In this document: piece by piece, positions 28,339-64,000 of the stretch | How positions within the stretch are numbered: position 1 is the first letter of the stretch | Layout of the letters: every line of letters starts with the position of its first letter | Assembly (NCBI GenBank): GCA_010093605.1 | Contig: MU004199.1 | Location: forward strand, 992,001-1,056,000 | DNA: 64,000 nucleotides | Direction: 5' to 3' | Origin: Lophium mytilinum | Taxonomy: Eukaryota | Made by a program: the position numbers and the translations under genes | Notes under the pieces: model-generated | Database searches by the model: none | Told to the model about the DNA's origin: nothing | The model's input: the letters and a program-made list of their open reading frames with translations, nothing else

Positions 28339-28470
28339 GGAGTAATGGGAGTAATGGGAGTAATGGGAGTAATGGGAGTAATGGGAGTAATGGGAGTAAT
28401 GGGAGTAATGGGAGTAATGGGAGTAATGGGAGTAATGGGAGTAATGGGAGTAATGGGAGTAATGGGAGTA
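28339..28470 (+). repeat. Perfect 9-bp minisatellite (GGAGTAATG), about 14.5 copies
   Basis: Directly visible tandem array just 3' of the LrgB-like gene. Confidence 0.98.
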
Positions 28471-30707: not shown

Positions 30708-32372
30708 ATGGCGCTCGCCACGAAGAACGAGTCGCAGAAAATCTTCGAGAAATTGAAGCTCAAGCCCGCAAACAAGGTCAGTTTGCCCCTCCACCGCCCA
30801 CCGCATCCCTTTCCGCACGCTGCTGATACCTTGGCTTCTAGATATGTTTCGACTGCGGCGCAAAGAACCCGACATGGTCGTCGGTGCCCTTCGGCATCTA
30901 CCTATGCCTCGACTGCTCGGCAAACCACAGGAACATGGGCGTGCACATCTCGTTTGTGCGGTCAACGAATCTCGACAGTACGTGGAGTGAGATCATACAC
31001 AGAGCAATGGCTTACTCGACCACACAGTCTGGCAATGGGATCAGCTACGGATAATGAAAGTTGGCGGCAATGAGTCGGCCACCAAATATTTCCAAACACA
31101 CGGCGGTTCCGCCGCGCTGAATAGCAAAGATCCCAAGACGAAATACACTTCCAACGCCGCTACCAAATACAAGGAGGAGCTGACGAGAAGATGTGCTGCT
31201 GATGCACGACAGTATGTCTCAGTCACTTTTGGCATATCAACTTCTAACATCCCCTAGATTCCCTGACGAAGTTGTAATAACAGAAGCCACCGACACCCCT
31301 AGCGGTACCAACACCCCCGCGGACAACGAAGATGACTTCTTTTCTTCTTGGGATAAGCCCGCCATCAAACGACCCTCCAACCCGCCCTCACGCACCGGTA
31401 CGCCCCTGAGCGGCTCTCGCACTGGCACTCCCTTCCTCAACGCCCCCGCGAACGGAAACGGCACCGCGCGCCCCAAATCTCCCCTCACCGCCTCATCGGA
31501 TGCCACCCCACGCGCCATTCCCGCCTCCGCGGTCCGCAAAACAACCGCAGGCGCCGCCCCCCGTAAAGCCAATATCCTAGGTGCCAAGAAGACAAAGCTG
31601 GGTGCTAAGAAGCTGACACCCGCGGATGGGGCGCTGGATTTCGAGGCTGCGGAGCGCAAAGCACGCGAAGAGGCCGAACGCATCGAGAAACTGGGATACG
31701 ACCCGGAAGCCGAGAAAGCAGAAGAAGCGGCTAAAGCTGCTAAAGGGAAAGCAGCGGCCGAGAAGGAACTACCTGGCATCGTGAGCCCGACCCCGGTCGC
31801 GCCCGCACGTGGAGGCTTTGGCTCGACGGGCAAGCCGGAGCGCAGCAGTGCTGAGATGGAACGGTTGGGGATGGGTATGGGACGGTTGGGCTTCGGGCAG
31901 GTTGGTGGCGCGAAGCCAGCGCCAGCAGCGGCGAAGAAGATGGGTGGGTTTGGGAGCACGAGCCGTTCTGCTGAGGGTACGATATGACTTTTTCACTTGG
32001 CTGTCTTTAAGAGTATGCTAACAAACTGCAGATGACGCCGAGAAATACGCCCGTCAAAAATTTGGCACGCAGAAATCTATCTCCTCGGACGAGTTCTTCG
32101 GCCGTGCCGCGTACGACCCCTCTACTCAAGCCGCCGCCAAGGCACACCTCTCGAACTTCGAAGGCGCCACCGCCATCTCCTCGAACGCTTACTTCGGCCG
32201 TCCAGAAGACGATGTACCGGAAGACGATTATGGTGATCTGGAGGGCGCGGCCAAGGATTTCGTAAGGAAGTTTGGTGTTACGGCAGGTGATGATTTGGAG
32301 AATCTGACGAGTTTGCTCGGCGAGGGGGCAACGAGGCTGCAAGGGGCTGTCCGGAATTATCTGAATAGTTAG
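30708..32372 (+). CDS. GLO3: ADP-ribosylation factor GAP (Glo3/ArfGAP2-3), multi-exon
   Basis: [59 protein letters not shown], Glo3 motif [11 protein letters not shown]...AISSNAYFG. Confidence 0.95.
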
Positions 32373-32739: not shown

Positions 32740-35700
32740 CAGTCTGGTCACATGCCCATACCTGACCTTCCTTTCCGACGAGTACAAAAACCTCGCTCGC
32801 TCTTTTTCTAGTCTTCCTTTCTTCATGGTCTCGCAAGGAGACGGGGGTGGATCAGAAGGATAATTTCTGCTGGTTCATGGAGTTGGATCAACTGCAGATG
32901 TGCATATCATCATGTCCTGGTTCTGGGAAGATTAGATTTCAAAATTAGGCACTCATGCCTGCTATGGGAGTGTAGGTGGTGTTAGAACCAGGGATACGAC
33001 ATGTCTCATGGAGTTGGGGTCGTGCTTTGGGCTGAAGTGGGTGTTTCTGGGCCGCGAAGGATTGGCTTGGTGATCAGCATCATTTGTCCGCGATTGTGAA
33101 GGTCGTGATGAAGGGACGATACGTGAATTCAATACACGAATGACTCGCTAACCGCTTTGAGATCAGTCAGTGGGCTAGCACGTGCACCACGTGCCCCCTG
33201 CTGGGAGGTAGGTATAAAATATCCCGCTCAGTTCTCTCTGTCTTCCTTTCTTCGTGGTCTTGCAAGGGGACGGGGTGGGATCAAAAGTATCAAAGGTTCA
33301 ACTTCATGGAATCGGATCAACACTTCGAGTTATTGGCTCACTCCATGGAGTCGGACCCCCCGGATTGATGAGCTTGATTACGTCACAGTGGTGGGAAGAT
33401 GGTAGTCCAAATACCCCATGGTGAGCCTTTATGCTGGGTCTGGAGTTGGCCTGAAGTTGGTGTCGTGGTTAACCTGAATGAGTTTCGAGGATTAGCATCA
33501 TCTATGCTCACTTATGAGGGTCGTGGTGAAGAGACTAGGGGTGAACCTGGCTTAAGAACGAATTAATAGCCGTTTCTAGGATTCATCATGTGGTAAGCAC
33601 GTGCAACACGTGGCCCCTGCTGGAGGGTAGGTATAAAATCTCTCGCCTACTCCTGTCCATCTTTCTTTTTTCATGGTCTTGCAAGGAGACAGAGGTGGAT
33701 AAGAAACGCCCGGGAGAAAATTCCATGTTGTGGAGGTTGGGAACAGTGTTTGTTCCATTCAAAACAAAACGATTCCAAGAGCAATAGAGATGGATTGGGC
33801 GGTGTGCTGAGGGGTATATAACGATTGATGCTCGCCATCATTTCTTTGCGATATCGCAGATTAGCGAAAGAAGGGGGAAGGATGAGACTTGTTTTGTCTA
33901 TCAGAGGAATCGCCACCGCTGTGCGTTCGAAGGCTGATTTCGTGGTCAGCACGTGCACCACGTGCCCCTTACCGAGGACGAGGTATAAAATCTCCCGCTC
34001 ACTCCTCAAGAACCGGCTTTCCTTCTTCACAGTCTTGCAAGGAGACGGGGGTGGGATTAAAACCGACACAATAGCATACTATGGGCGAGAGCTACAAAAC
34101 CATGGCTAACCCGAGTCAAATGTGCTGGAGGGCGGGATTCTTTCTCTCATGGAGGGCTAGAGAGTAGAATCAAAAAGTGGATCGTGATGAAGTGATGAGC
34201 GAGAGCTGCAAAACGGATCTACGACACCGCTCATGCGGTGGGGACTGGGACGATCAATCGGAGTCGAAATTCGGAGCGATAGGAGTGGTCGAGGTGTGAA
34301 AAACGGGGTTCAGAAAGCACGATGGAGGTGGATTGGTCGGTGTTCCGGGGGCTTGGTGGTGGTTGATGCTTACCATCATTCTTAGACAGTTCCGAAGAAC
34401 GAAGGAGAAGAAAGAGTGAGTGCGGCCTTACCGCCTAGGAAATTAAGCCGAGAAAACCTCCCTCTGACCTTGGATTTAGGTGCGTCCACGTGTTTCACGT
34501 GGCCCATAACTCGGTCCAGGTATAAAATCTTCCGCTCGGTCCTCGAAACTTAGTTTTCTTCATCAAGGTTTCGCAAGGAGACGGGGATGGATCAAAAATC
34601 ACTAGGGATGTTGGAGGGCGGAGATCAAAGAGTTAAGAAGTCTGAAATCATGGGAGAGTGTGAGTGTGTTCAAAATATCTATGGAACTCGATGTATGGGA
34701 GAGAGCGTGGTGTACAAACTCTTTCTCCATTCTGGCCGATGGAGTCGTGTCCGGCGGAGAGAGGGGGTCTATTCGAGTGCGGTGATGATAGAAACCTTGC
34801 CGGTGTGTTGATTGTGTTTAAGAATGGGATGGGTTCAAGACAGCGTTGCGGAAGGATGGTGATGTGCGATAGAATAGATGGTGGAGATTTAGAAACTCAA
34901 TAATATAAGTAGTGCATGTTTACTTCTAGGGAGGTAGCTTCTGGAGCTCTATAAGATGAATGCTGTATGCTCTATAGCTACCTCCTTTCCTCTTCCCACT
35001 CAATCTCCAGCCTCTATCCTCCTAACAACCTCATCACGCACGAACCACGTGAACACCCCTAAACTAACATATAAAAACATCCCCTATCTCCCTTTCTCTT
35101 CCTTTCTTCAGTCTAGTCTCACACAGAGAAAGCGACGGAGCAAACCCCCCAGGGCCTTCCGGTCATGAATTGCGTGCATTAACCCTACATTCCGCATTAC
35201 GAATGGCGGTGCCAGGAACTCGGGAGCGCAACTCTTCTTCCTCCTCGACCTATGGACCGTGGGTGGTATTACCTGTGGAAATATAACGACGGCATGAGGT
35301 CGGTCGGTGGCTGGTACTCTAGTGTACTTGAATTAGGTTGATTTTCATCGAGTTTGGTTGGTGGTGGAGTGCACTGTCATAGATAAGTGGCTATTGATAG
35401 GATGGGGGTAGAGTAGTGTTGAGTATGGATCGGGCGGTGACAATGTTGGACATTTCAATAGGGGTTCAATTGGAATAGCTTTATGCCGTCGCGTTAGAGC
35501 GAACCTTCGAGGTCTCTCGGGATCATACCTTGCTAGAAGATCTTCCTTCAGGCTTGTCAACACGCAGTCCAGCTTACCATGTACAATCTTCCCTTCTCTC
35601 ACCGCCCTCTCTAATCACGTTATACACACGTGCCCGACGTGCTCCCCCTCCCACATCTTCTATATAAACCCCCCTCCCCACCCCTCAATCTTCCTTCCTC

Positions 35701-36310
35701 AAGTTCTCGCAAGAAGGCAGGGGAGGAGTCAACACACGCGGATCCCTTCCCATGGGGATCAACACCAAAAGCCAATTCTCCCCATGCTGCGGTTGGAGCT
35801 CCGGGGTTTCAAAGTATCCAAAGAAGCCTTGAATGGGAGCGGAGGGGGACTGCAAAAGCTTACTCCGCCGCCCGAAATGGAGTTGGTGGTGTGGGGTTGC
35901 CTGGGCTGGCTGGTGCTCGCCGTCGATGGTTGATGGTGGAGTCTGTCAAAGCCGTGGAGTTGTGGCGTGTGTTAGGTGGAGGTGTTGTTGTGGATCTATA
36001 GGGTGGGAGAGAGGGAGTTAGTATCGGTTGCGCGGTGAAGACGTTGACGCTTCGATGATCGTAGGGTCTTCCCATCCCACTCCTATCAACACACCTCATC
36101 CCTCCCAGTAGCGTCTGGTGACTTTCCACCCCTTATCTCCGTTCCCCCATCCCCTGTCTCCCCATCAGCAGCCAAGCCATGAGCCAGCGCCTGATTACAC
36201 GTGACGCCCCCCCTCCGTCGAGTATAAAACATCCCATCCATCTTCCTCCTCTTCTTCTTTCATTCCATCAAGGCCTCGAATGGAGATAGGAGCGGTTCAA
36301 AAATTGGCAC
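32740..36310 (+). other. Array of eight diverged promoter-plus-hairpin units (candidate ncRNA gene cluster)
   Basis: TATA-type boxes at 32783 (TACAAAA), 33213, 33632, 33984, 34521, 35070, 35661 and 36223. Each is preceded by CACGTG-type box(es) and followed by a pyrimidine tract and a GTCTYGCAAGGRGAC-type hairpin. The repetition is directly visible; function is inferred. Confidence 0.8.
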
Positions 36311-37017
36311 ACTCTCACATAATGGGGTATATACCTTCCAACATCATAATCGATGCTGTCTGGGAGGACTTGGGGGTCGGCGAAATCGGCCGGCGAGACC
36401 CGCGATGGGAGTGTCTGGGTGGAAATTGAACATGGCAGAAAGAGAAAGTATGGGGTTTCGGCGGCGTTCAAACTGCGCCAGAGAGCTCGGTGATGGATTT
36501 GAATTTGCAGGGCGAGACGCTAGCTTGTTGTTCATCGTTTATGGTTGGTGGTGGTGGCGGCTGTAGATCAAGCTTGATGCTTGCTAGTATAAGGTAAAGG
36601 AGACAGTGAAGAAACTTAGAGTGAGGGAATGACAGTTAGCTTTGCTTGAAAGCGTTGAAGATCATGACTGAGACAATATTTAGACGTGATCCAGCAATGA
36701 GTAGACAAATGCAAGATCCAATCCATTTTAAGATGTCTCTAGATGCAAATACGCGTTTCAACCCACCCCAAATGGTTTCCAGAGCTTTTTCTGTCCCTCT
36801 TGTTTTGATAAGAAAGGTGATAAGAAGTCTTCGTCAATACATGCTCAACGCCCAAGCCGAAATCGATACCTAACATGTGAACAGAGACGCCAAACGCCAC
36901 ATATCCCCTGCTTACAAGTCCTTTTTGTGCCAGGTTTTCAAAATTGCAGCCCGCGCTAGTATGTACGAGTTAGGGAGCTCGACTGCACGCTCCACTGCTC
37001 TGTGATAGTGAAATCGC

Positions 37018-38576
37018 CTACGATGCTGCAGAAGTCTCGGCGCTCTTGCTTGAGCTTGCCACGGTCTCTTCGGACTCGGATGGCGTGCCGGCGTTGATCG
37101 CACGGAAGCCGTTGGGGAAGATGTTTACCGCGCCTGCTTGGACGAGCTATCATATACATCAGTCCCCAGGTGTCTCAAAGCTAGAGTATGACTAAACTTA
37201 CCGCACGACTCAAATCATCCAGCAAGTCCTCAACATCCTCAATGCCAACACACAGCCGGATAATATCCTCAGGCAGCGCCCTCTCGGCCCTCGTCTTCGC
37301 ATCAATGCTGGCATGGCTCATGCGGCACGGCATGCTGATCAAGCTGTTCACACATCCGAAACTCACACTAATCGCCCACAGCTTCGCGCTCTCCACAATT
37401 CGCTCGCTGACATTGACGTCGCCGGTCTCGAAAGACAAGACTGCGCCCGCGCCCCGCGCCATGCTCCAGTGCAAGTCGTACTGGGGGTGTGACCGCAGGC
37501 CGGGATAGCGTACTTTGAAGCCGTGGGACTCGAGGAAGACTGCAATGCGCTGCGCGTTCGATTGTTGCTTCTCCATACGTACGCCGAGGGTCTTTACTCC
37601 GCGCAGAAGCAGCCAGGAGTCGAATGGGGAGAGCCCGACGCCGGACGCGTTGATAGTGAAGTAGAGTTTCTCGCCCAATGCAGGATCGTTCACGGCGAGC
37701 ACACCGGCCATCAGGTCGTGGTGGCCAGAGAGGTACTTGGTGCCGCTCTCGTAGACGATATCCGCGCCTAGATCAAGAGGGTTCTGTAGGAGTGGCGAGA
37801 GCATAGTATTGTCCACGGCCACTATGGCTGAAGGATTGGCGGCGTGTGTTATGCTTGATACTCGAGGGATATCGGCGATTTTGATGAGAGGGTTTGTGGG
37901 GCTTTCGAGGAGGACCATGGCGGTCTTGGGCGAGAGGACTTTGCGGACGGCCTCTGGATCGGTGGTGTCGACATGGTGGACAATGATGCCACCATTGGTC
38001 GCGAGGTACTTCAGAAGACGGTTTGTGCCGCCGTAGAGATCATCTCCAGTCACGACCTCATCGCCCGGGCGAAGTAGGCGGGTTATCACGTCTAGAGCGC
38101 CCATTCCGGAGGAGACGACGAGAGCGCGCGAGGCGTTCATGATCTTGGCCAGGTGCCGTTCGAGATGGGTGCGTGTGGGATTGCCGGAGCGTGTGTAGTC
38201 ATACTCTCCGCCGCCGCCAGTTGCTGATTCTTGCTTGAAGGTTGCGGACTGTGGTGTTGAGTTAGCATCGTTCATTGCGACAGAACGTCCTCGGCTTCTA
38301 CGGAGAGCTTCCGCGTGTGACCAAGGCCTCTAAACGGCCTTCGAGTTGAGTATGTACCTGGTATATGGGCACGCTGGACGCATTGTACTGGTCGGTGCTC
38401 TCGGTGTAGACCAATTCGGTCGCCAGAGCGTATTTCCTGCCATTTCGAGGACTCGAAGGCGCTGGGCTGGGCGGTAGGTCGTGTCCGTCGAGATCCAGGC
38501 CGCGGAAGGCCTTCCCTACGCCAGTGACCTTGTCCTTGAAGCTCTCCGGGGGTGGAGACGAGGATCCGGATGACAT
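37018..38576 (-). CDS. STR3: Cystathionine beta-lyase, 3 exons
   Basis: SSVPIYQSATFKQ, YDYTRSGNPTR, DDLYGGT, ESPTNP, VDNT, PLP-lysine motif ESGTKYLSGHHD, IRLCVGIED. Confidence 0.93.
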
Positions 38577-53721: not shown

Positions 53722-56700
53722 TCCTCTTCTTTTAGATCTAATTTACTATTAAATTATATTTATAATAGTACGTTGCGCTTACTACTTTATACTATGCGCT
53801 ATTAGTATATTAGGCTATTAGCTTCTTTAGAAGCTTTAAAGCTTCTAGAGGCATATAATACTATAAAAGGTGCATTAGTAGGTAGTAATATTATAGTAAT
53901 ATACCTAAGAGGGGTTTAGAATTCTTTAGAGGCCTGCTACTATATTAGTAGGGGGGATAATAAAGGCATTAGAATATTTAATAGCTTAATAGTAAGGAAG
54001 AATTAAAAGAGATTATAAAGTATTTATAATAGAGGGAATTATAAGGTAATATAAATATTAGTATACTAGCGCGCATTAGGTTCTAATATATAATTAGAGC
54101 TATAATAGCTAATAATAGGCTTATTAGAGATCTTATAAAGTCCCTTATAATCTAGTAAAAAGCTTATAATCTTATATAGGTTTAAGAAGCTATTAGTATA
54201 TTATAGAGCAGTAAGTAGTAATCTAAAAGTAATAGATTTAAGAATCTAGAGTATATATAAGGCCTTCTTAATGCTCTTATACTTTTTCTTCTATACTTAA
54301 CTTTCTTCTTTAAGGTTTAAGCTTTTTTTAGCTTTAAAGGTTTATTAAAGACTCTTATAGCTTCTCTTTTTATTACTATTATCTTTCTTTATTAATTTCT
54401 TTATTAGAACTCTCTCTCTCTTAGCTTCTAGGCTGCTTCTTCTTACTCTAAGTTAGTATTATAATATTACTTAATACCTAGCTAGGTTCTATAGCCTCTA
54501 GCTTACTCTATAGAAGAGGTAGAGATAATAAAGGTAATAATTCTTTAGACCCTAGCTATAGTTATAAGGTTCTACGCTTTTATAAGTACTTAGGTATCTT
54601 AGCTTATAAAGCCTTATAGGCCTATAGTAAGTTTCTAATAATAGTTTAGCTTTTTCTCTTAATAAAGCTAATAAGATCTAGTTACTATTATACTTATATT
54701 AATTATTAACCTTCTAATAGTCTAGAGGTTCTATAATNNNNNNNNNNTATTAAATTAGCTAGGTATATATATAGGTAGATAGGTAGGTAGAAAAAAGTAC
54801 TTCTAGAAACTTCTAGAAGCTAGAAGGGTAGCTACTTTATATTATAGTATAATAGTAGATTGTAAGAGAAGACCTAATATTAGTATATATAGATAAAGTA
54901 GCTATAAGAGAGAGAGAAGGGCGCGGAGCGCCGGCTAAAAGGTAGGCAAGGCTAGCGCTAAGCCTAGTTATATAATAGTAATTATATACTAGAGGGCATA
55001 TAACGCTGTTATATATATTAGAAATATATTATAATAGAAGTTACATTATAGCTATAATAATAGCTTTTAATAATTCTATTTTAATTTCTTAAGCCTTCTA
55101 ATACTATACTATATCTTTTAATTATTTAAACTATACTAAATACCCTCTAAAGTTTAAAGGTAGTAGTAGAGCTTAGAGAAATATACTACTTTAAGAGTTT
55201 CTTAGTAATATTAGAAATAATAAACTAATTTTAAATAAGAACTATAGCTATACTTTATGCTTTATAGGGCTTCTTAAATAGTATTTAGGCTTAAGGGTAG
55301 ATTATAGTAAGAATTCTAGGGCTTCTTCTACCTTTAGGGCTTGCAACTACTACCTAAGAATATTCTTAGAAGGCTGTTAGTTTAGTAAATATATTTAAGC
55401 TTATAATCTAGATAGTTCTTCTCTCTACTAAGAATTCTATATAGAATATTATTAGTAGGGTAGTAAGAGGACTTATTTATTCTAAGGTAAGTTTAGCTTT
55501 ACTTTTAGAGTATTTTAGAACTTAGCTAATACCTATTATAGAAGAATAGACTTTAATAGCTTATTAAAAGACTACTAGGGCTTATATTTAATAAGGTTGC
55601 TATAATATTACTAAGTTTATATCTTCTCTTTATAACTAAGAATCCCTTAAAAACCTAGCTAAGAATGTAGTATACTTAGCCTTAGCTATATAGCTACTAA
55701 TAGAATTAATTTAAAGAAAGACTACTATACTACTATATAATCTAGGTATTTCTTATACTTTTAAATCTCTAATAGCTTAACGTTATCTATAGAGCTCTAG
55801 TAGTGCTTCTACTTAGGCTTCTAGTTTAAGATCTAGCTTCTAGTAATTATCTATAGCTGTATTAGATTTAGAAAATATAGCTACTTTAGGTTCTAGTACT
55901 TAAGGTCTAAGGTAATACTCTCTAACCTCTTCTACTTAGCCTTTAACTTCTTTAACTTCTTTAACCTCTTATTATTCTTCTTTAGGTTCTCTATAGCGCT
56001 CTTAAGAGCCTACTTCTAATATACTATTAAGCCGCCGCTTATTCTAGTTATCTATTAGTAATAATAATAACTCTACTAAAGAGACCCCTTTAAACTCTAC
56101 TTAGTATTAGATAGGCTTTCTAAATACTATTCTCTAGAAGAATAGGGCTAGTAAGTATAGCTAAAATATATTAACTTAGAGCGCGCCTTTAAAATAGCCT
56201 TAGAAGAATAATAATAGCTATTCTAGTAGTAGTAGTAGCTATAGGAGTTCTAGTAGAAGAAGTTCTAGTAGTAGAATAGCTACCTAGAAGGACTAAGAGT
56301 GTATTAGCTTAGCTAGTATTAATAGAAAAGTATTAATTTTCCCTCCCCTTCTAGATATAAGAAGGGTTAAGTATAATAGAAGTATAAGCTTAGCTTAGTT
56401 AATCTCTAATATAGGTTCTTAAATTTATTATCTTTTTAATTCTCTAAAGATAAAATATAGCTAAATAAGTAATAATAAAGAATTAAACGCTTAAATCTAA
56501 ATTAATAAAGGAAATCTAGGTAATAAATATATAGAGTTCTTCTAATACTCTATTAGCTTAAAATAGAAGCGCTATTTAAGCTCTCTTGCGCTTTCTTCTG
56601 CGCAACTCTATATTAAGAGCTTAGGTGGGTTATATTATAGGTATATTAAAATTACTATCTAAATCTAACTTATAATTACTACTAGTATTCTTATTATCTT

Positions 56701-59700
56701 TAATATCTATTATGCTAGTATTACTGCTAGAGAAGCTCTCTAATTAAATATTAGAGTTAGCATTCTTATCTAAGGACTTATTATTTATGCGCATTTTAGT
56801 ATTCTTAGCTCTTAAGTTAATTTCTTTATTCTATAGCTCTATAGTATTATTAGTTTAAATAATAGTATTACCCCTTAGCCGCATAATAATAGTATCCCTA
56901 TTATACTTATTATTATCTTAGTATATAGCATTAGGTAATTAGGTAGTAGTATTTATACTCTTAGGTGTTCTATTACTATCTTAAGCTATTTCTAATAGTT
57001 TTCTATTATTAGTATCTATAGCTAGTACTAATGCATTATTAGGTTATTCTATAGGTGCTGCGTAATTACTAGTTCCCTGCGGAATATTAAGCTTATCTTA
57101 ACTTATTTTTAGCTTATATATATAAACTTTCTAATAGGTATTTATAGTAGTCTTACCTGTATCTTTATATTATATAACTATAAAGCTAGTAACCTATGCT
57201 AGTATAATAGTTAATTAACCCTTCTTAGGTCTCTTTTTCTTAGTAGCCTGTTAGTCTCTCTTAAAAACTCTCTCTTTAAAATCTCTTAGTATTTAATGTA
57301 GCTTTAGTTTAGGCAGTTTCTAAGTATTCTTCTTCTCTTTCTAGAAGAGCTCCGCGCCCTTATGCTGCTATTTTAATTAATACTTAGTAATCTTCTAATT
57401 CTATTCTACTTTAGAAATTATAGTAAACTTAAACTATAGCTTTCTATTAGTATTATCTATATCTAATATATCCGCAATAGTATTATTACTAGGTTTAACT
57501 TCTTCTTAATATACAGCACGCTCTTTATTAGTATTATTAAAATCCTTTTAGTTTTAAAGTACTTAGTTATCTTCTAATATATTATTAGAATATTCTAAGC
57601 TATATTTAGGGTCTTTTTAGTTCTAAAACTTTATATAAGCATTAATGCGTGTATTTACTAACCTATTACTATAAATAAGGTTCTTTAATACTTAATTAGT
57701 AGGCGTTTAAAGCGTATAAGTACTAAGAGAATAAGTAGTAATAATCTTAAATAGACTAAACTATTTTACTCTAAATTTTCTCTTAACCTTATTTTAAAGG
57801 AGTACCTAGGAACTAATCTTCTATTAAGTAACTAGATACTTCTTAGATAGAGGTTGTAGATTCTATAGGCCTGCTATAATTACTTTCTTTAGTAGCTAAT
57901 CTTCTACTAGTACATGCATATATTAAACTTTCCTAATGCAGGCTAAATAATACTCTAATTTAGCTTCTTTATCTATAGTCTTATTAAGAGCTAGTACTAA
58001 AGTATTATTAGGTACTTAAGGATGTCTACTATATATAAGGTAGTAGGAAGTATAGCTATAGAAGGTATTCTAAGTATATATTATATATACTATAGCCGGC
58101 AACTAGATATTTTATATAGCTATATCTTAATTAATTATTAGCTTTATAAGAATATTTTCTAAGACTCTATTAAGCCTCTCTACCTTACTATTTACCTAAG
58201 AGTAATATAGCGTTATAATATTATAGTAAGTCTTAATAAGCTTTTATAGTACTATAATAACTTTAGAAAGAAAGTTTAAACTATTATTAAAAGTAAACGC
58301 TGCTAGGGGTCTATACTAGTAGTAGATTCTTTTATAGATAAATATTACTATAGTCTTAGCTTAAGTATTAGAAAGCGCTATAGCTTTAGGCTAACCTATA
58401 GCGTAATTAATAGTAGTAATAATCTAGTAATTCCTATAGATTAATTATAGCAATCTGCTAATTAAATTAATGCCCTATTTATTAAATAGATCTTAATCTT
58501 TAACCTAATAAAATATTAGTTTATAAATAATCTTTTCCTTCTATACTAGCTAGCATAAGGTATACTTATAAGCGTATTTATTAGTATTATAACTTATTAT
58601 TAGCTACTAGCTATATACTTATAGGGCCTTCTGCATACTATAGTATATAAAGTAGCCTAGCTAGTAGGTTCTATTAAGAACCTATTAATAATAGGAAGGT
58701 GCAATATATAGTATAGTATTCTTAAGAGTATATAGATCTAAATTACTATTAGGTTTATAAAAGTAATAGTATAGTTCTTCTTTTAGAATTATAAAGTTCT
58801 AATATAGGGATAGATAGATTCTTTAGTAGTAAAGCTAGTGTTATTTTAATTTAGCCTTTAATAGCTATTTAGAGAGAGTAGGCTTAAGGCCTATTATAAG
58901 GAACTTTTTTAAATCTTTAATATACTCTATATTAGAATCTTTATACTTAAAGAGGGCTATAAGGCGTTCTTAGGTAAAATTAGGGCGCCTACTAATTATA
59001 TTTAGTACTATTATAAGGGCTTCTAAGTAATACTATATTATAGGGTTATACTACTAGAAATCCTTAATCTATTAAGTAAGCCTTAGTAAGGCTTTCTTAG
59101 TAGTTTATAGGTATTATAATAAGTAGTAATTAATTATAATTATTAATTCTTTCTCTTAGATATAGTATTACTAAATTCTAAGTACTTTCTTAATTACTAG
59201 AAGTTCTTTTTTATAAACTAGGTAGTTTAATTTAGCTTTATTAAGCTTCTAACTATTAAACGCAATAGGGTGCTACTTACCGTCTTCTTTTTATTAGAGA
59301 AGAACTATTCTAATAGTAAAATTAGAAGCGTCTATTTTAATCTAAAAGAGCTTTAACTAGTTAATAAGAGTAAGTATAGGGCGTTTAATAAGCTTTTACT
59401 TAAGAAAGTTAAAAGTAATTTAATAGCTAATATTCTATATAATAGCTTAGTACTTTTTCTTTTATATTATAGTGTTGCTTTCCTTTAGAAGCTTATAGAG
59501 AGGTGCTAATATATAGGTAAAGTTTTTAATAAACTTTTAATAGTATATTACTAGTCTAATAAACTATTAGACCTTATAGATATTAGTAGAAATAGGCTAA
59601 TACTAAATAGCGTCTAGTTTATTAGTTATTAGTTTTACGGTTCCGTAAGAAACTATATAGCTATAGAACTTAATAGTTTCTTAAGTAATTAAGTACTTAT

Positions 59701-62700
59701 TAGTTTTAGTAAATAGTTATTTCTTTCTAAAAGCTTTAAATAATAATTAGAGGTAGTTAAGATACTCTTTTAATATTTCTAAAAACACTATAATATTATC
59801 TATATAGATAAGCATAAATTAATATAGATATAGTTGTAAGGTGTTATTTATAATAGCTTAAAAGGTAGTAGGAGCGTTATAGAGGCTAAAAGGTATAACT
59901 AGAAATTTAAATTTCCCTTTAATTATATTAAAAGTAGTCTTATAGATGTCTAATTAATAAACGCGCAGCTAGTAATATCTAGAGGTTAGATTAATTTTAG
60001 TAAAGAATCTAGCCTTCCTAAATAACTATAAGTAGTTATTAATGCGTAGTAGGGGGTAGGTATTTTTCTAGGTTACTAGATTAAGTGCTCTATAGTTAAT
60101 ATATATTTACTACTTACTATTTAGCTTTAGAATAAAAAGAACTAGAGATTTCTAGGTACTAATAGACTCTTAGATAAGGCCCTATTCTAGTAGCTTATAG
60201 ATCTATTAGGTCTATTCTTCTATTTAATAATATAAGAGGCAGTATATAGTATTATTTACTAGCTTTATATTTCTAGTATTAATTAGATAGTTATATCTAT
60301 GCTTAGGCGGTAGAATATTAGGAAGGATATTATAGAAATAAGGTCTATACTCTTTAAGAAGCTCTTAGAACTTCTCTTGCATAGAAGTAGTAATATAATT
60401 AATTAGAAGTAATAAATTCTTATCTTCTAATAGTAGATTAGTGCCGGGTTATAGTATCTAATCTAGTATTAGTTTATTAGAAGCTTTTATAATATAAAGG
60501 TAAGTAGAATTAAGCTTATCTACTAAGAGCCTCTTATACTCCTAATAGGATATTATATTAATAAAACCCTAGTATTCTAGTTTAGGGAGACTAAGGTCTA
60601 TAATAGGGCTTAATATATTAAGCTAATAAGCTACTAGTTTAATCTTTAGGTTGCGGCTAACCTGCGTTTACAAGGTAACGGAATTAGTAAAGAAGTTAAT
60701 AATAGCTTAGTATTACTATAGCTAGGTTATACTAAGAATATATTAATACCCTTTAAGGTCTAGAATATATGCGGTTAGAGTACCTAATAGCGTATAGATC
60801 TTAAATAGAATCTTTAAGGCTTTTATACTAATTATAGTAGTACCTAAGGAGAGTTTAACTACCTTAGGGGCTATTATTTTAATGTTTCTTAGCTAATATT
60901 AAGTATGCTTTAATAATATATAGATAGAATTAGCGCTATAGTTAATTAAAAAGGTAGTTCTTTTCTAATAGTTAGATAGTTCTAAAGTTTTCTTATATTC
61001 TAAAAGATATTTATCTAGAGAGTTAAGGTAGTAGATTCTTTCTTCTATTAATTTAATAATAATTTAGTTAGAAGAATTATTAAAGGGCGGCTAATTCTTC
61101 TCTATTATAAGTTTATAAAAAGTAGAAGTTTTATCTTTTAGGTTAGTTAGTTGCTCTAAGGCTACTAACCCTTCTAGTTTTCTAATAGCTTTTTAGCTAG
61201 CTAAGTATAGTTATATTTAATATAGCCCTTCTTACTATAATTATAGTACTTACGCGTATTAGTATTCTATTAAGTATTACCTTTACTACGTCCGCTATAG
61301 CCTTAACCGCGTTCTTAAAATCTAGTAGTATTTCTACCTTTAAAGGCGTTAAGTTTAGCGTTATTTTTAGCGTCTAGATATTTATATTTATTAGGATTAA
61401 TATTAGTTACTTAGAAGTAATTATTATTTAATTCTTTATTAGCCCTAGAGATAGTATTAAGGCGGCCCTAATAGTTTCTTATTCTCTTATACTAGAAGAT
61501 CTAATACTTATTAGCTGTAGCAACCTACGCTATCTATTTATTAAAATTAGGAGGGGCCTACGCTTAGGCGTTAATATAAAACTTAAGGCTAGGTTTTAAA
61601 CCTACACGGGCACGTTAATATACTTTAAGATTAGATAAAGCTATATTAAGAGGGTATATATAAGCAGCCCTAATAAGCTTATTAAAGAACTACTAAGTAC
61701 TAGTTATCTATACTATCTTATTAAAGTAATATTAGCGTTGCTTTAGTATATCCGCGCTTTTATAGTAGCGGCTAAAGGTAGTAAAAAACTAATCTAATAT
61801 AGTAAACTTAGTATTACCTTAGTAGTACTATTAAATATCTTAATTCTATTAAACGGCTACAGTTCTAGCTATATAGCTACCGGCTAGCTAAATCTTTTAA
61901 GTTTCTAGCATCTACTAGTAAACCTATTAATAGGCGTCTACTTATATAGTAATAAAGTTGCGCATCTAAACTATCTAGATAGAGTATATATTATTATTAA
62001 CTTTACCTAACTATATAGCGGAAGTCCTTATAAGGACTTTAGGTAGTACTATTAAATAAGGTTCTCTTATAGCTAATATTTTCTTAAAGGCTTATTAGAG
62101 CTCTTATATAGTTTATTCTAATAGACCTTTATTATAGTCTAGTATTAGATAATCTAAGGAAGCGTTAGATAATAGACCCTAAGAGTAGATAGTACTCTAA
62201 GAAGTAGGCTACTACTAGGGGTTATCTAATATATTCTTAACGCGGGTATAGTAATTAGAAACTATAGCTTATAGCTATCTTAGTATAGTAGCCTACTACT
62301 ACTATATAGAAGAAGCTAATATAAAACTAAAGAGTTCTAGTTTCTAGTAATCTATTATATACTCTATTATAGAGGCTTAAAAGCATTAATAGCTATCTAA
62401 AGAAGGCGCAAATAATAGCCCTTAATAGGTAAGCTCTAGATTATAGGCCGGGGCACTACTATAAATAATTAGAGGACCTTAAACTAGTAGCTTAATAGGT
62501 TCTAGGGCAGCGGCCTGCTTAGCCTATAAGGCTAATATTAGATTAGATAGATTATAAAATATAGTGCTAAACTAAGAGAGCCTTTAGAAGAGTTCTTAAA
62601 GGTTAAAGAATAATCTATTAAAATAATAATATCTATTACTAAATATAAAAGAAAGCTAAGAGTTATAGAATATTTAAGGATAAGAAAGAGTAGAAAAGAG

Positions 62701-63344
62701 TTAATAACTATAATATAATTAAATTAAAGAGTAAGAAAAGGGTGCTAAAATAGTAGTATTAAGTTTCTTTCTTAAATACTTTTTAATATCCTATTAGAGA
62801 GGAAGAATCCTTAAAAGGACTTCTCCGCCTTCTTCTTATAATTAACTTATAAGAATTTCTAATTACTATATAATTATTAGGCTCTATTAAGCTATAATAT
62901 TATTCTTCTTACTATTCTACTATTAATCTTACTTTAGTAGCTAATAGAACGCGTAGTTAGTTACATAGAAGTATTAAAAGGAATAGAAAAATCCTATAGT
63001 AATATTCTAGCTAAGAGCTCTTTAGACCTATACTATTTAATTTTTATAAGAATATTTATAATAGGCGGTTATACTATAATACTAGCCTAATGCTAATTAG
63101 GGGCTATTATTAATAGTTATTATTAATTACTAATTAGGTTAATTTTTAGAAACTATTAATACGGCTTAGTATTATTATAATAATCTAAAAATTCTACTAA
63201 TTATAGAAGCTAATATCTTCTATTATTACTAAGGGTTAATTATAAGAATATAGCCTTAGCTAGCTCTATACTATTAAGTTTAAGAACCTAATAGCTCTCT
63301 AAGAAGGCCTTAAAGGCGGCTAGAACTATAACTAAGCTACTAGA

Positions 63345-63549
63345 TATAATATTTCTAATTACATAATATAAGAATTTAGAGAATAATAGATATTAATTCT
63401 ATATAGAAATCTAGCTAGTCTATATATATATTAGAGAGGCCTATATAGGCCTTAATTATACTAGATCTATATAGAAAGGTATTTCTATAGTAGATCTATA
63501 TATTATATATATAATATCTAAATATTAACTATATATTAAGAATTCTATA
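63345..63549 (-). repeat. 5' LTR (right copy)
   Basis: tataatatttctaattacataa...aagaattctata, same length as the left copy and differing only by transitions. Confidence 0.92.
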
Positions 63550-64000
63550 GGCTTAAAAGACTAATTCCCTCTCTATATAAGCGGACCGATATAAGCTGCT
63601 AAATATACAAGCTAATGAGCTTAGGTAATTAAAGGGTATTAGCGTGGATCTCGATCTGAAGAAAGTGGCCTTTCTTTCGTAATTTTTGAAACATTGATTC
63701 CGTCGGCGATCACCAGGTAATGCGCAACCACAACCACGGAAACCCGTAGAGATGTTTATCTCCTACAACGACCATGACACCACTTCGGAGAGGTTTTGCT
63801 TTTATCATGAAGGAGAAGCAGGCGGACTGTAGGTAGATTGACACTCGCCGCGACTGGACAGAAGCCGAACCCATATCTCTTCAGTGTTCTGGTGTTGGTG
63901 CTGATGAGCGTCTTAGCAGCAACTGGACCCAACACTAGTCCATTGAGCACCGTCCTTCAGATTTTCGACAGGCTTATACTTCCCGGACTCATCGAATTCA

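Follow-up and report, generated by a model that had tools for sequence, protein, structure and literature searches.

The stretch of DNA analysed here, called the window throughout, comprises 64,000 nucleotides of Lophium mytilinum (G000:C19:992001-1056000 in a 43.4-Mb assembly of 49 contigs), a Dothideomycete according to an excerpt of PMC2816966. On its + strand, positions 32750..36600 hold a tandem cluster of eight non-coding spacer-array genes, which is one cluster of a genome-wide family. In these genes, a promoter is followed by modules of about 50 nt, each consisting of a G-rich handle ending in GWTCAAAA, a unique 19-nt spacer, and then ATGG. An initial annotation of the locus carried the title of a conserved 5' hairpin in every array unit. 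This title was overstated, but the locus to which it points belongs to a class of repeat-spacer RNA genes that is real and seems not to have been described so far.

In unit 1, the promoter (32750..32789) has the variant forms CACATG and TACAAAA. The first handle (32825..32857) is composed of ATGG, the hairpin GTCTC-GCAAG-GAGAC (32828-32842), a G-run, and GATCAGAA; it is followed by the first spacer (32858..32876, 19 nt) and by ATGG. This spacer is single-copy, other matches occurring only at three mismatches. Later modules of the unit start at 32888, 32939, 32983, and 33074. Unit 2 (33179..33590) contains two CACGTG boxes, TATAAAA at 33213, the hairpin at 33257, and a module at 33281; the corresponding elements of unit 3 (33598..33945) are TATAAAA at 33632, the hairpin at 33676, and a module at 33700. 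For unit 4 (33950..34486), TATAAAA is located at 33984, the hairpin at 34032, and modules at 34057, 34208, 34254, and 34298; for unit 5 (34487..35035), these positions are 34521, 34568, and 34625, 34670, and 34714. The hairpin is degenerate in the last three units. Unit 6 (35037..35620) has TATAAAA at 35070, the hairpin at 35116, and no module above the score cut-off; unit 7 (35627..36190) has TATAAA at 35663, the hairpin at 35704, and modules at 35808 and 35852. In unit 8 (36198..36600), TATAAAA at 36223 and the hairpin at 36273 precede modules at 36297, 36380, and 36468, the first of which contains the spacer 36303-36321. All these features are on the + strand.

Transcription was assessed with the RNA run X1, which consists of strandless contigs from one run and one condition. 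Its depth is 2.5-22 over 32.7-35.3 kb, compared with 470-1400 for the flanking genes. In the tail of unit 4, an intron GTGAGT...CTGAC...TAG (34416..34479, +) is spliced out in one RNA contig of depth 3.4, the joint being 34415-34480. The GT..AG borders of this intron indicate that unit 4 is transcribed on the + strand by RNA polymerase II (Pol II). Thus, the spliced + strand RNA upholds the earlier view of + strand transcripts that begin with a conserved 5' handle and continue into unrelated sequence.

All evidence on the family stems from one genome, that of L. mytilinum. The promoter pattern CACGTG-N14-30-TATAAAA-N4-6-CC has 79 genomic matches (64 distinct sites) versus 2 in the control; with one mismatch, the numbers are 391 and 78, and by extrapolation the family would comprise roughly 150-250 genes. 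The distance from CACGTG to TATA, determined for 36 boxes, is 23-25 bp in 10 and 33-37 bp in 15 of them, with a thin distribution up to 66 bp; the two main peaks are separated by one helical turn. About 40 bp past TATA, a CT-rich tract changes to purines at a C-A step in 41 units, a step which the scoring used favours. In 55 units not chosen via the motif, the distance from TCAA to ATGG was 25 nt 30 times, and any other distance occurred at most 8 times. A profile search, whose profile was trained partly on promoter-picked loci, found 236 modules in 258 kb of genome DNA versus 7 in reversed DNA; for the window, it gave 19 modules at a lower score cut-off. The modules have a period near 50 (mostly 36-56) and chain into 85 arrays of 1-16 modules each; a TATA is located upstream of 69 arrays. 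At promoter-picked sites, a sense module was present in 22 of 26 cases and an antisense module in none of the 26. A strict module pattern has 212 genomic matches versus 53 in the control and fits 42 of the 236 profile modules; extrapolated from these values, about 900 modules and spacers would exist genome-wide. Spacer length is 19 nt in 133 of 182 modules and 18 or 20 nt in the others, the scan having allowed 18-20 only. Linkers are 11-40 nt long, and what is conserved in them is short motifs and G-richness only; the median length of first handles is 27 nt versus 25 nt for internal linkers. Array tails are rich in GGTGATG and GATG...CATC.

Outside the window, 24 of 29 pairs of neighbouring units are inverted (12 convergent, 12 divergent). 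At C5:345.9-348.9k, where four arrays occur within 3 kb, an array of 14 modules converges with one of two modules over about 250 nt, which makes the site a possible source of double-stranded RNA. The array clusters are spread unevenly: C5 carries 15 of 76, C6 and C7 carry one each, and the distribution is also uneven across C13, C15, and C4. The longest known array (C13:200.1-201.0k) has 16 modules, among which are two near-duplicate spacers without a target. A spacer at C5:257k can pair at all but 1 of its 19 positions with the tail of the array at C5:1720k; this pairing may be due to chance, as such tails are GGTGATG-rich.

The spacers are unique and do not pair with their own linkers; a pyrimidine occupies position 18 in 137 of 176. 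Among six paralogues, two of which were chosen via the hairpin, spacers have diverged to random identity (27%), whereas the leader is kept at 73-90%. Three false modules located inside coding frames were removed prior to the codon and peptide analyses. A codon model gave a score of +0.28 for 234 spacers, compared with +0.60 for held-out coding sequences, -0.44 for intergenic DNA, and -0.05 for dinucleotide shuffles. In the same 234 spacers, stop codons are depleted, with 26 TAA (58 expected) and 29 TAG (50 expected). Judged by these statistics, the spacers as a class appear to resemble partly drifted sense coding sequence. Reading all spacers as peptides by eye revealed no second motif family besides the one described next.

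Candidate targets were found for the array of 14 modules at C5:346.6-347.4k, which holds five related spacers. A genome search with one of them led to two sites on C15 within tandem DEDDh genes of family PF21762. The only PDB match of a PF21762 gene is the QDE-2-interacting protein (QIP) 4WBQ (E 9e-18), which carries the same HNAGND motif and is aligned through it; HNAGND is the catalytic motif of the active site. The five spacers translate to QHNAGND, SHNSGND, HHNAGND, LHNAGND, and QHNAGND, where the AT of ATGG completes the last codon; the A of ATGG also agrees with the target. The HN(A/S)GND codon pattern has 10 genomic matches versus 1 in the control, namely the five spacers and five DEDDh (PF21762) genes. 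Without its first three positions, the pattern has one extra exact match (C16:1471303); with one mismatch, it has 35 matches, which are mostly chance and include four more paralogues. Six columns vary in spacer positions 4-19, and five of them fall on the third base of a codon (p = 0.0014). Between spacer and gene, the best pairs show 1-2 differing bases and the remaining ones 3-6. One predicted antisense guide pairs over 24 nt (Watson-Crick or G-U), and its 21-nt form reaches -36.6 kcal/mol versus -39.4 kcal/mol for a perfect duplex. As these spacers are sense to the mRNA, a guide cutting the mRNA must be their antisense copy, with a 5'-U at the invariant A. According to an excerpt of PMC6106068, QIP makes duplex siRNA single-stranded. 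That five spacer variants match codons of the active site in QIP-like exonucleases, an expanded family, suggests that the system may regulate RNA interference (RNAi) genes themselves. The C15 locus (C15:697900-701300) is a tandem of QIP-like DEDDh genes; a TAA interrupts the frame of the gene near 700k, which may be a pseudogene or depend on editing of this stop codon.

Spacers of the window that were searched genome-wide gave chance-level matches only, and hence no target for the window's own array. The first spacer of unit 1 has a sense site with three mismatches just past the stop codon of a C1 Argonaute, which chance allows. Two further spacers have 13 and 14 3'-anchored bases in common with Argonaute and a QIP-like gene. 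These are two matches versus 0.2 expected in 5.8 kb (p = 0.02 in a post hoc test); 36 kb of control genes gave none after removal of three self-matches.

The silencing machinery of this fungus is in part expanded. Sixteen Piwi matches fall into about 10 genes, of which three encode conserved Argonautes and about seven, located on C1, are divergent. Three divergent Argonautes are arranged in tandem at C1:829-840k (including C1:836600-841200), and one divergent C1 locus is full of stops. The genome contains 10 full-length DEDDh_C loci of the QIP-like type, two Dicers, four RNA-dependent RNA polymerases (RdRPs), and three Nop proteins; thus, Argonautes and the QIP-like family are expanded, whereas Dicers, RdRPs, and Nop proteins are not. 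The tandem Argonaute cluster ends 3.0 kb from arrays, and a C15 gene lies 4.0 kb from one. Of eight Argonaute positions, two have an array no more than 4 kb away (p = 0.01; with three times as many arrays as are known, p = 0.08). None of the three RdRP loci on array-bearing contigs lies within 180 kb of an array. In the Argonaute on the array side, three motifs with catalytic aspartates are preserved; in a tree of 37 of the 137 proteins, its branch is long and belongs to a Dothideomycete clade that evolves fast, and the paralogue beside it groups with Mytilinidion.

We propose that the arrays are Pol II genes for trans-acting antisense small guide RNAs that silence mRNAs, a reading to which we assign a probability of roughly 0.55. 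It builds on the promoter anatomy, the spliced + strand RNA, the unique spacers of fixed length, and a single family of sense matches whose variation follows the codons. According to this model, a bHLH factor bound to CACGTG and TBP bound to TATAAAA would start transcription about 40 nt past TATA. The transcript strings G-rich handles together with unique 19-nt spacers, each spacer lying between GWUCAAAA and AUGG; the hairpin represents one version of the first handle. An antisense copy would be made by RdRP or by convergent transcription, for which inverted neighbouring units may offer a second route, and the invariant A of AUGG would mark the point where this copy is cut or begins. The predicted guide thus has a 5'-U, 19 variable bases, and UUUU(G), with a length of 21-25 nt. 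An Argonaute, probably an extra, fast-evolving one, would then silence mRNAs, tolerating mismatches and G-U pairs. A more far-reaching version regards the arrays as a CRISPR-like eukaryotic guide library: hundreds of arrays with spacers captured from or tracking host mRNAs would yield antisense Argonaute guides in a motif-set register, which would, among other uses, police the expanded RNAi genes (QIP-like ones, perhaps Argonautes) in an internal arms race. For this version, we see somewhat less than an even chance.

Several observations weigh against antisense guides. Targets were found for one array of 85; the five QIP spacers are not independent of each other, and each differs from the genes in at least one base. 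Taken in the direction of the guide, these mismatches fit G-U pairing inconsistently, as read partly by eye. Eight of nine single spacers searched genome-wide had chance-level matches only, near-matches of 236 spacers were not in excess within 258 kb, and a search among the spacers for the codons of the Argonaute motif YADRLCE was negative. The codon-like score partly survives dinucleotide shuffling (sense minus antisense 0.46 versus 0.28). The sole RNA run, which consists of contigs, covers the arrays at low depth.

Alternatively, the sense strand itself might supply the guides of a non-canonical ribonucleoprotein, the array RNA being cut like pre-crRNA. Products would be handle plus spacer of about 50 nt or a 25-nt UCAAAA-N19, and they would pair with the template DNA strand or with antisense target transcripts, leading to chromatin silencing or to marking similar to repeat-induced point mutation (RIP). 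Such guides agree with the fact that the sense strand alone is shown to be transcribed, that the first handle begins where transcription probably starts and is as long as internal linkers, and that exactly 25 nt, U-initial in RNA, separate the T of TCAAAA from ATGG. A weak hint in the same direction was a 4-bp stem closing each spacer loop (pooled p = 0.001); however, this signal is gone within arrays (p = 0.17), and the stem was rejected as not significant. As a sense 25-mer would moreover have a constant seed, Nop proteins are not in excess, and a recurrent neighbour gene is absent, we regard sense guides as unlikely.

More doubtful still is the idea that array RNAs act as decoys or target mimics, which soak up gene-derived antisense siRNAs and so protect mRNAs. 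The sense orientation of the spacers and their imperfect matches would fit a mimic, and part of the mismatches are G-U-compatible in this direction. A sponge needs abundance, however, and the contrast in depth between arrays and flanking genes argues against it, if weakly, given contigs from one run and one condition; in addition, fixed handles would be needless, and gene-derived siRNAs would not share one register.

We give even less credit to the assumption that the units act as RNA scaffolds to which proteins bind, or as DNA elements, and that their spacers are neutral; the 25 nt would then be a two-site ruler and the QIP match one captured fragment. The saturation of the spacers and the lack of a clear target for most of those that were searched are what neutrality would predict; the third-position variation among the five copies, the codon-like composition of the class, and the strict strand relative to the promoter speak against it.

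The least probable reading, which we consider very unlikely, is that of the initial annotation, namely a 5' hairpin kept for its structure as the common handle of otherwise unrelated transcripts: for it speak 49 paired cells out of 50 in the stems of 10 aligned copies, the variable loop position 4, and the high identity within a subfamily; against it stand the rarity of the hairpin, broken pairs, absent covariation, and weak folding (-2.6 to -5.8 kcal/mol).

The eight hairpin motifs themselves were confirmed at the positions given in the annotation. GTYTYGCAAGGRGAC has five exact matches in the window, all on the + strand, and with up to two mismatches there are 6 versus 0.68 expected. Genome-wide, the strict hairpin occurs in only 7 of 62 TATA-anchored units examined, a count that leaves out L063 and L077 with a mis-called TATA in each; thus, the claim of a hairpin in every unit does not stand. 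That substitutions turn Watson-Crick pairs into G-U pairs only is correct for units 1-5, but units 6, 7, and 8 have broken pairs in the 5-bp register. Contrary to a retained stem, units 6 and 8 have one each; unit 7 is indeed weaker, with two broken pairs in register and a possible shifted stem of 4 bp. A dispersed copy at C5:1919316 has a C-C mismatch in the stem, which is one broken pair; other copies are located at C1:650737, C1:652123, C1:843466, and C8:1230402, the loop base being altered in two. In the 10 aligned copies, the covariation score was equalled by 436 of 500 shuffles, and no pair is altered on both sides, in agreement with the annotation's own caveat about double compensatory changes. 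Five of seven observed transition types give G-U, as do half of the possible ones (p = 0.23). The commonest substitution sits at a CpG, and handles contain only 7-10% C and about 50% G, so that C>T and A>G changes are favoured anyway. Hence, G-U-only change is what chance and base composition lead one to expect.

The remaining 55 leaders fold no better than shuffles (mean z = -0.14), and no consensus base pair was found in 36 aligned leaders. A general leader hairpin was rejected for these reasons, most units being unstructured and lacking a consensus pair. Most members of the family have an unstructured G-rich leader of equal length, which contradicts the hairpin as a shared handle. It is the mark of one leader subfamily. 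Within this subfamily it may have a function because, among the six paralogues, its identity is 90% compared with 73-75% for the flanks, a difference that is partly a selection effect. Two details of the annotation have proved right: the hairpin directly follows the pyrimidine-to-purine switch, which is the likely start, and the GGATCAA/GGTTCAA motif mentioned in passing turned out to be the important part. The signals common to the family are linear motifs at fixed spacing, with 25 nt from TCAA to ATGG. An exact hairpin copy at C7:480519 (L003) lacks TATA and module; it adjoins a T-arm-like stretch GGGTTCGACCCC on the opposite strand, and no tRNA was called there.

Two protein genes, both spliced, well covered by RNA, and outside the system, flank the cluster. 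The left one (30708..32372, +) is presumably ArfGAP-like, judged by its N-terminus. The right one (37181..38576, -), with which the array converges, encodes a Cys/Met PLP enzyme similar to cystathionine beta-lyase (PF01053, E 1e-134). One RNA contig spans 35690-37146 and links units 7-8 to this gene; consequently, the transcripts may overlap. Elsewhere in the window, a short-period tandem repeat (28339-28470) reads (MGV)n or (SHY)n, and at 54000-64000 the GC content drops to 25-31%, as in RIP-mutated repeats.

Searches for a known identity of the class gave the following results. Rfam had no match at gathering score in the window and 20 loci (one chance match, E 6.5), and no tRNA was called in 47 loci. 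Small peptides were rejected on account of the missing shared frame and a period near 50 that is not a multiple of 3, introns as the unit because linkers, inspected by eye, lack GT..AG ends, and spacer-linker hairpins because own flanks (-12.46) and permuted flanks (-12.53) score alike. Among 79 scanned of 139 listed neighbouring frames, no recurrent or cas-like gene was found, only unrelated housekeeping families. Whole-array DNA searches returned only two paralogues or the query itself, with a search seed that may miss 19-nt matches. A metagenome scan with a loose pattern showed nothing array-like among the matches listed, which is uninformative on absence; viral contigs gave two chance tandem-repeat matches and prokaryote genomes one match to the pattern. 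Among the titles and abstract openings listed by searches of open-access literature, none describes such arrays.

Guide arrays built of repeats and spacers have been described in prokaryotes and in viruses of prokaryotes, and dedicated guide genes like those of piRNAs are held to be absent from fungi. With CRISPR, the arrays share a leader or promoter, n unique spacers of fixed length between n+1 repeat-like parts, and a purine-rich 8-nt handle before the spacer. Unlike CRISPR repeats, which are near-identical, those of the fungus are degenerate, variable in length, and without palindrome; there is no adjacent cas-like gene, and transcription is by Pol II with an intron. The fungal spacers correspond to mRNA of the host and appear to expand through duplication and drift.

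In TIGR-Tas, as outlined in parts of PMC12045711, guides likewise form a tandem array in which the repeats are short and poorly conserved and the spacers are surrounded by short fixed motifs; however, a 36-nt TIGR unit carries two short spacers, which add up to 16-18 nt, along with box C/D motifs, and a Nop protein is found adjacent, whereas the fungal module has a single 19-nt spacer and none of the three Nop loci is near a known array. Nematode 21U piRNAs, in an excerpt of PMC6436959, resemble the arrays in having numerous Pol II loci that share an upstream motif, in the uniqueness of their sequences, and in clustering on some chromosomes; yet each arises from its own 28-nt transcript and is Piwi-loaded, whereas the fungal arrays are polycistronic with internal handles and have 1-16 modules in place of one short capped precursor per locus. 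Known fungal small RNAs (masiRNA, ex-siRNA, milRNA, disiRNA; parts of PMC4592977, PMC5310905, and PMC7763443) are similar to the predicted guides in being 24-25 nt long, with 5' U, and made by Dicer, RdRP, and Argonaute; among them, meiotic masiRNAs of N. crassa have 25 nt and a 5' U (PMC4592977, in part), and small RNAs of F. graminearum 24 nt and likewise a 5' U (PMC5310905, in part). In these excerpts, antisense small RNAs reduce mRNA levels, but their sources are unpaired DNA, the target genes themselves, hairpins, and convergent loci, not dedicated trans-acting repeat-spacer genes. The plant miR482/2118 family, which acts on NBS-LRR genes, offers the same logic of a guide family directed at conserved-motif codons of expanded genes, with third-position diversity (PMC5026261, in part). 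There, a fold-back precursor holds the antisense guide; the fungal transcripts have no fold-back, hold the sense copy, and carry many spacers in tandem between handles, while targeting in trans with third-position variation is seen for one array and the QIP-like genes.

In summary, the proposed system works like miR482, looks like CRISPR or TIGR, and belongs to none of them by the features that define each. If its small RNAs are confirmed, such a polycistronic, motif-measured library would produce small RNAs by a new route and could serve as a natural cassette for multiplex silencing in a fungus, and it would raise the question of how spacers are gained.

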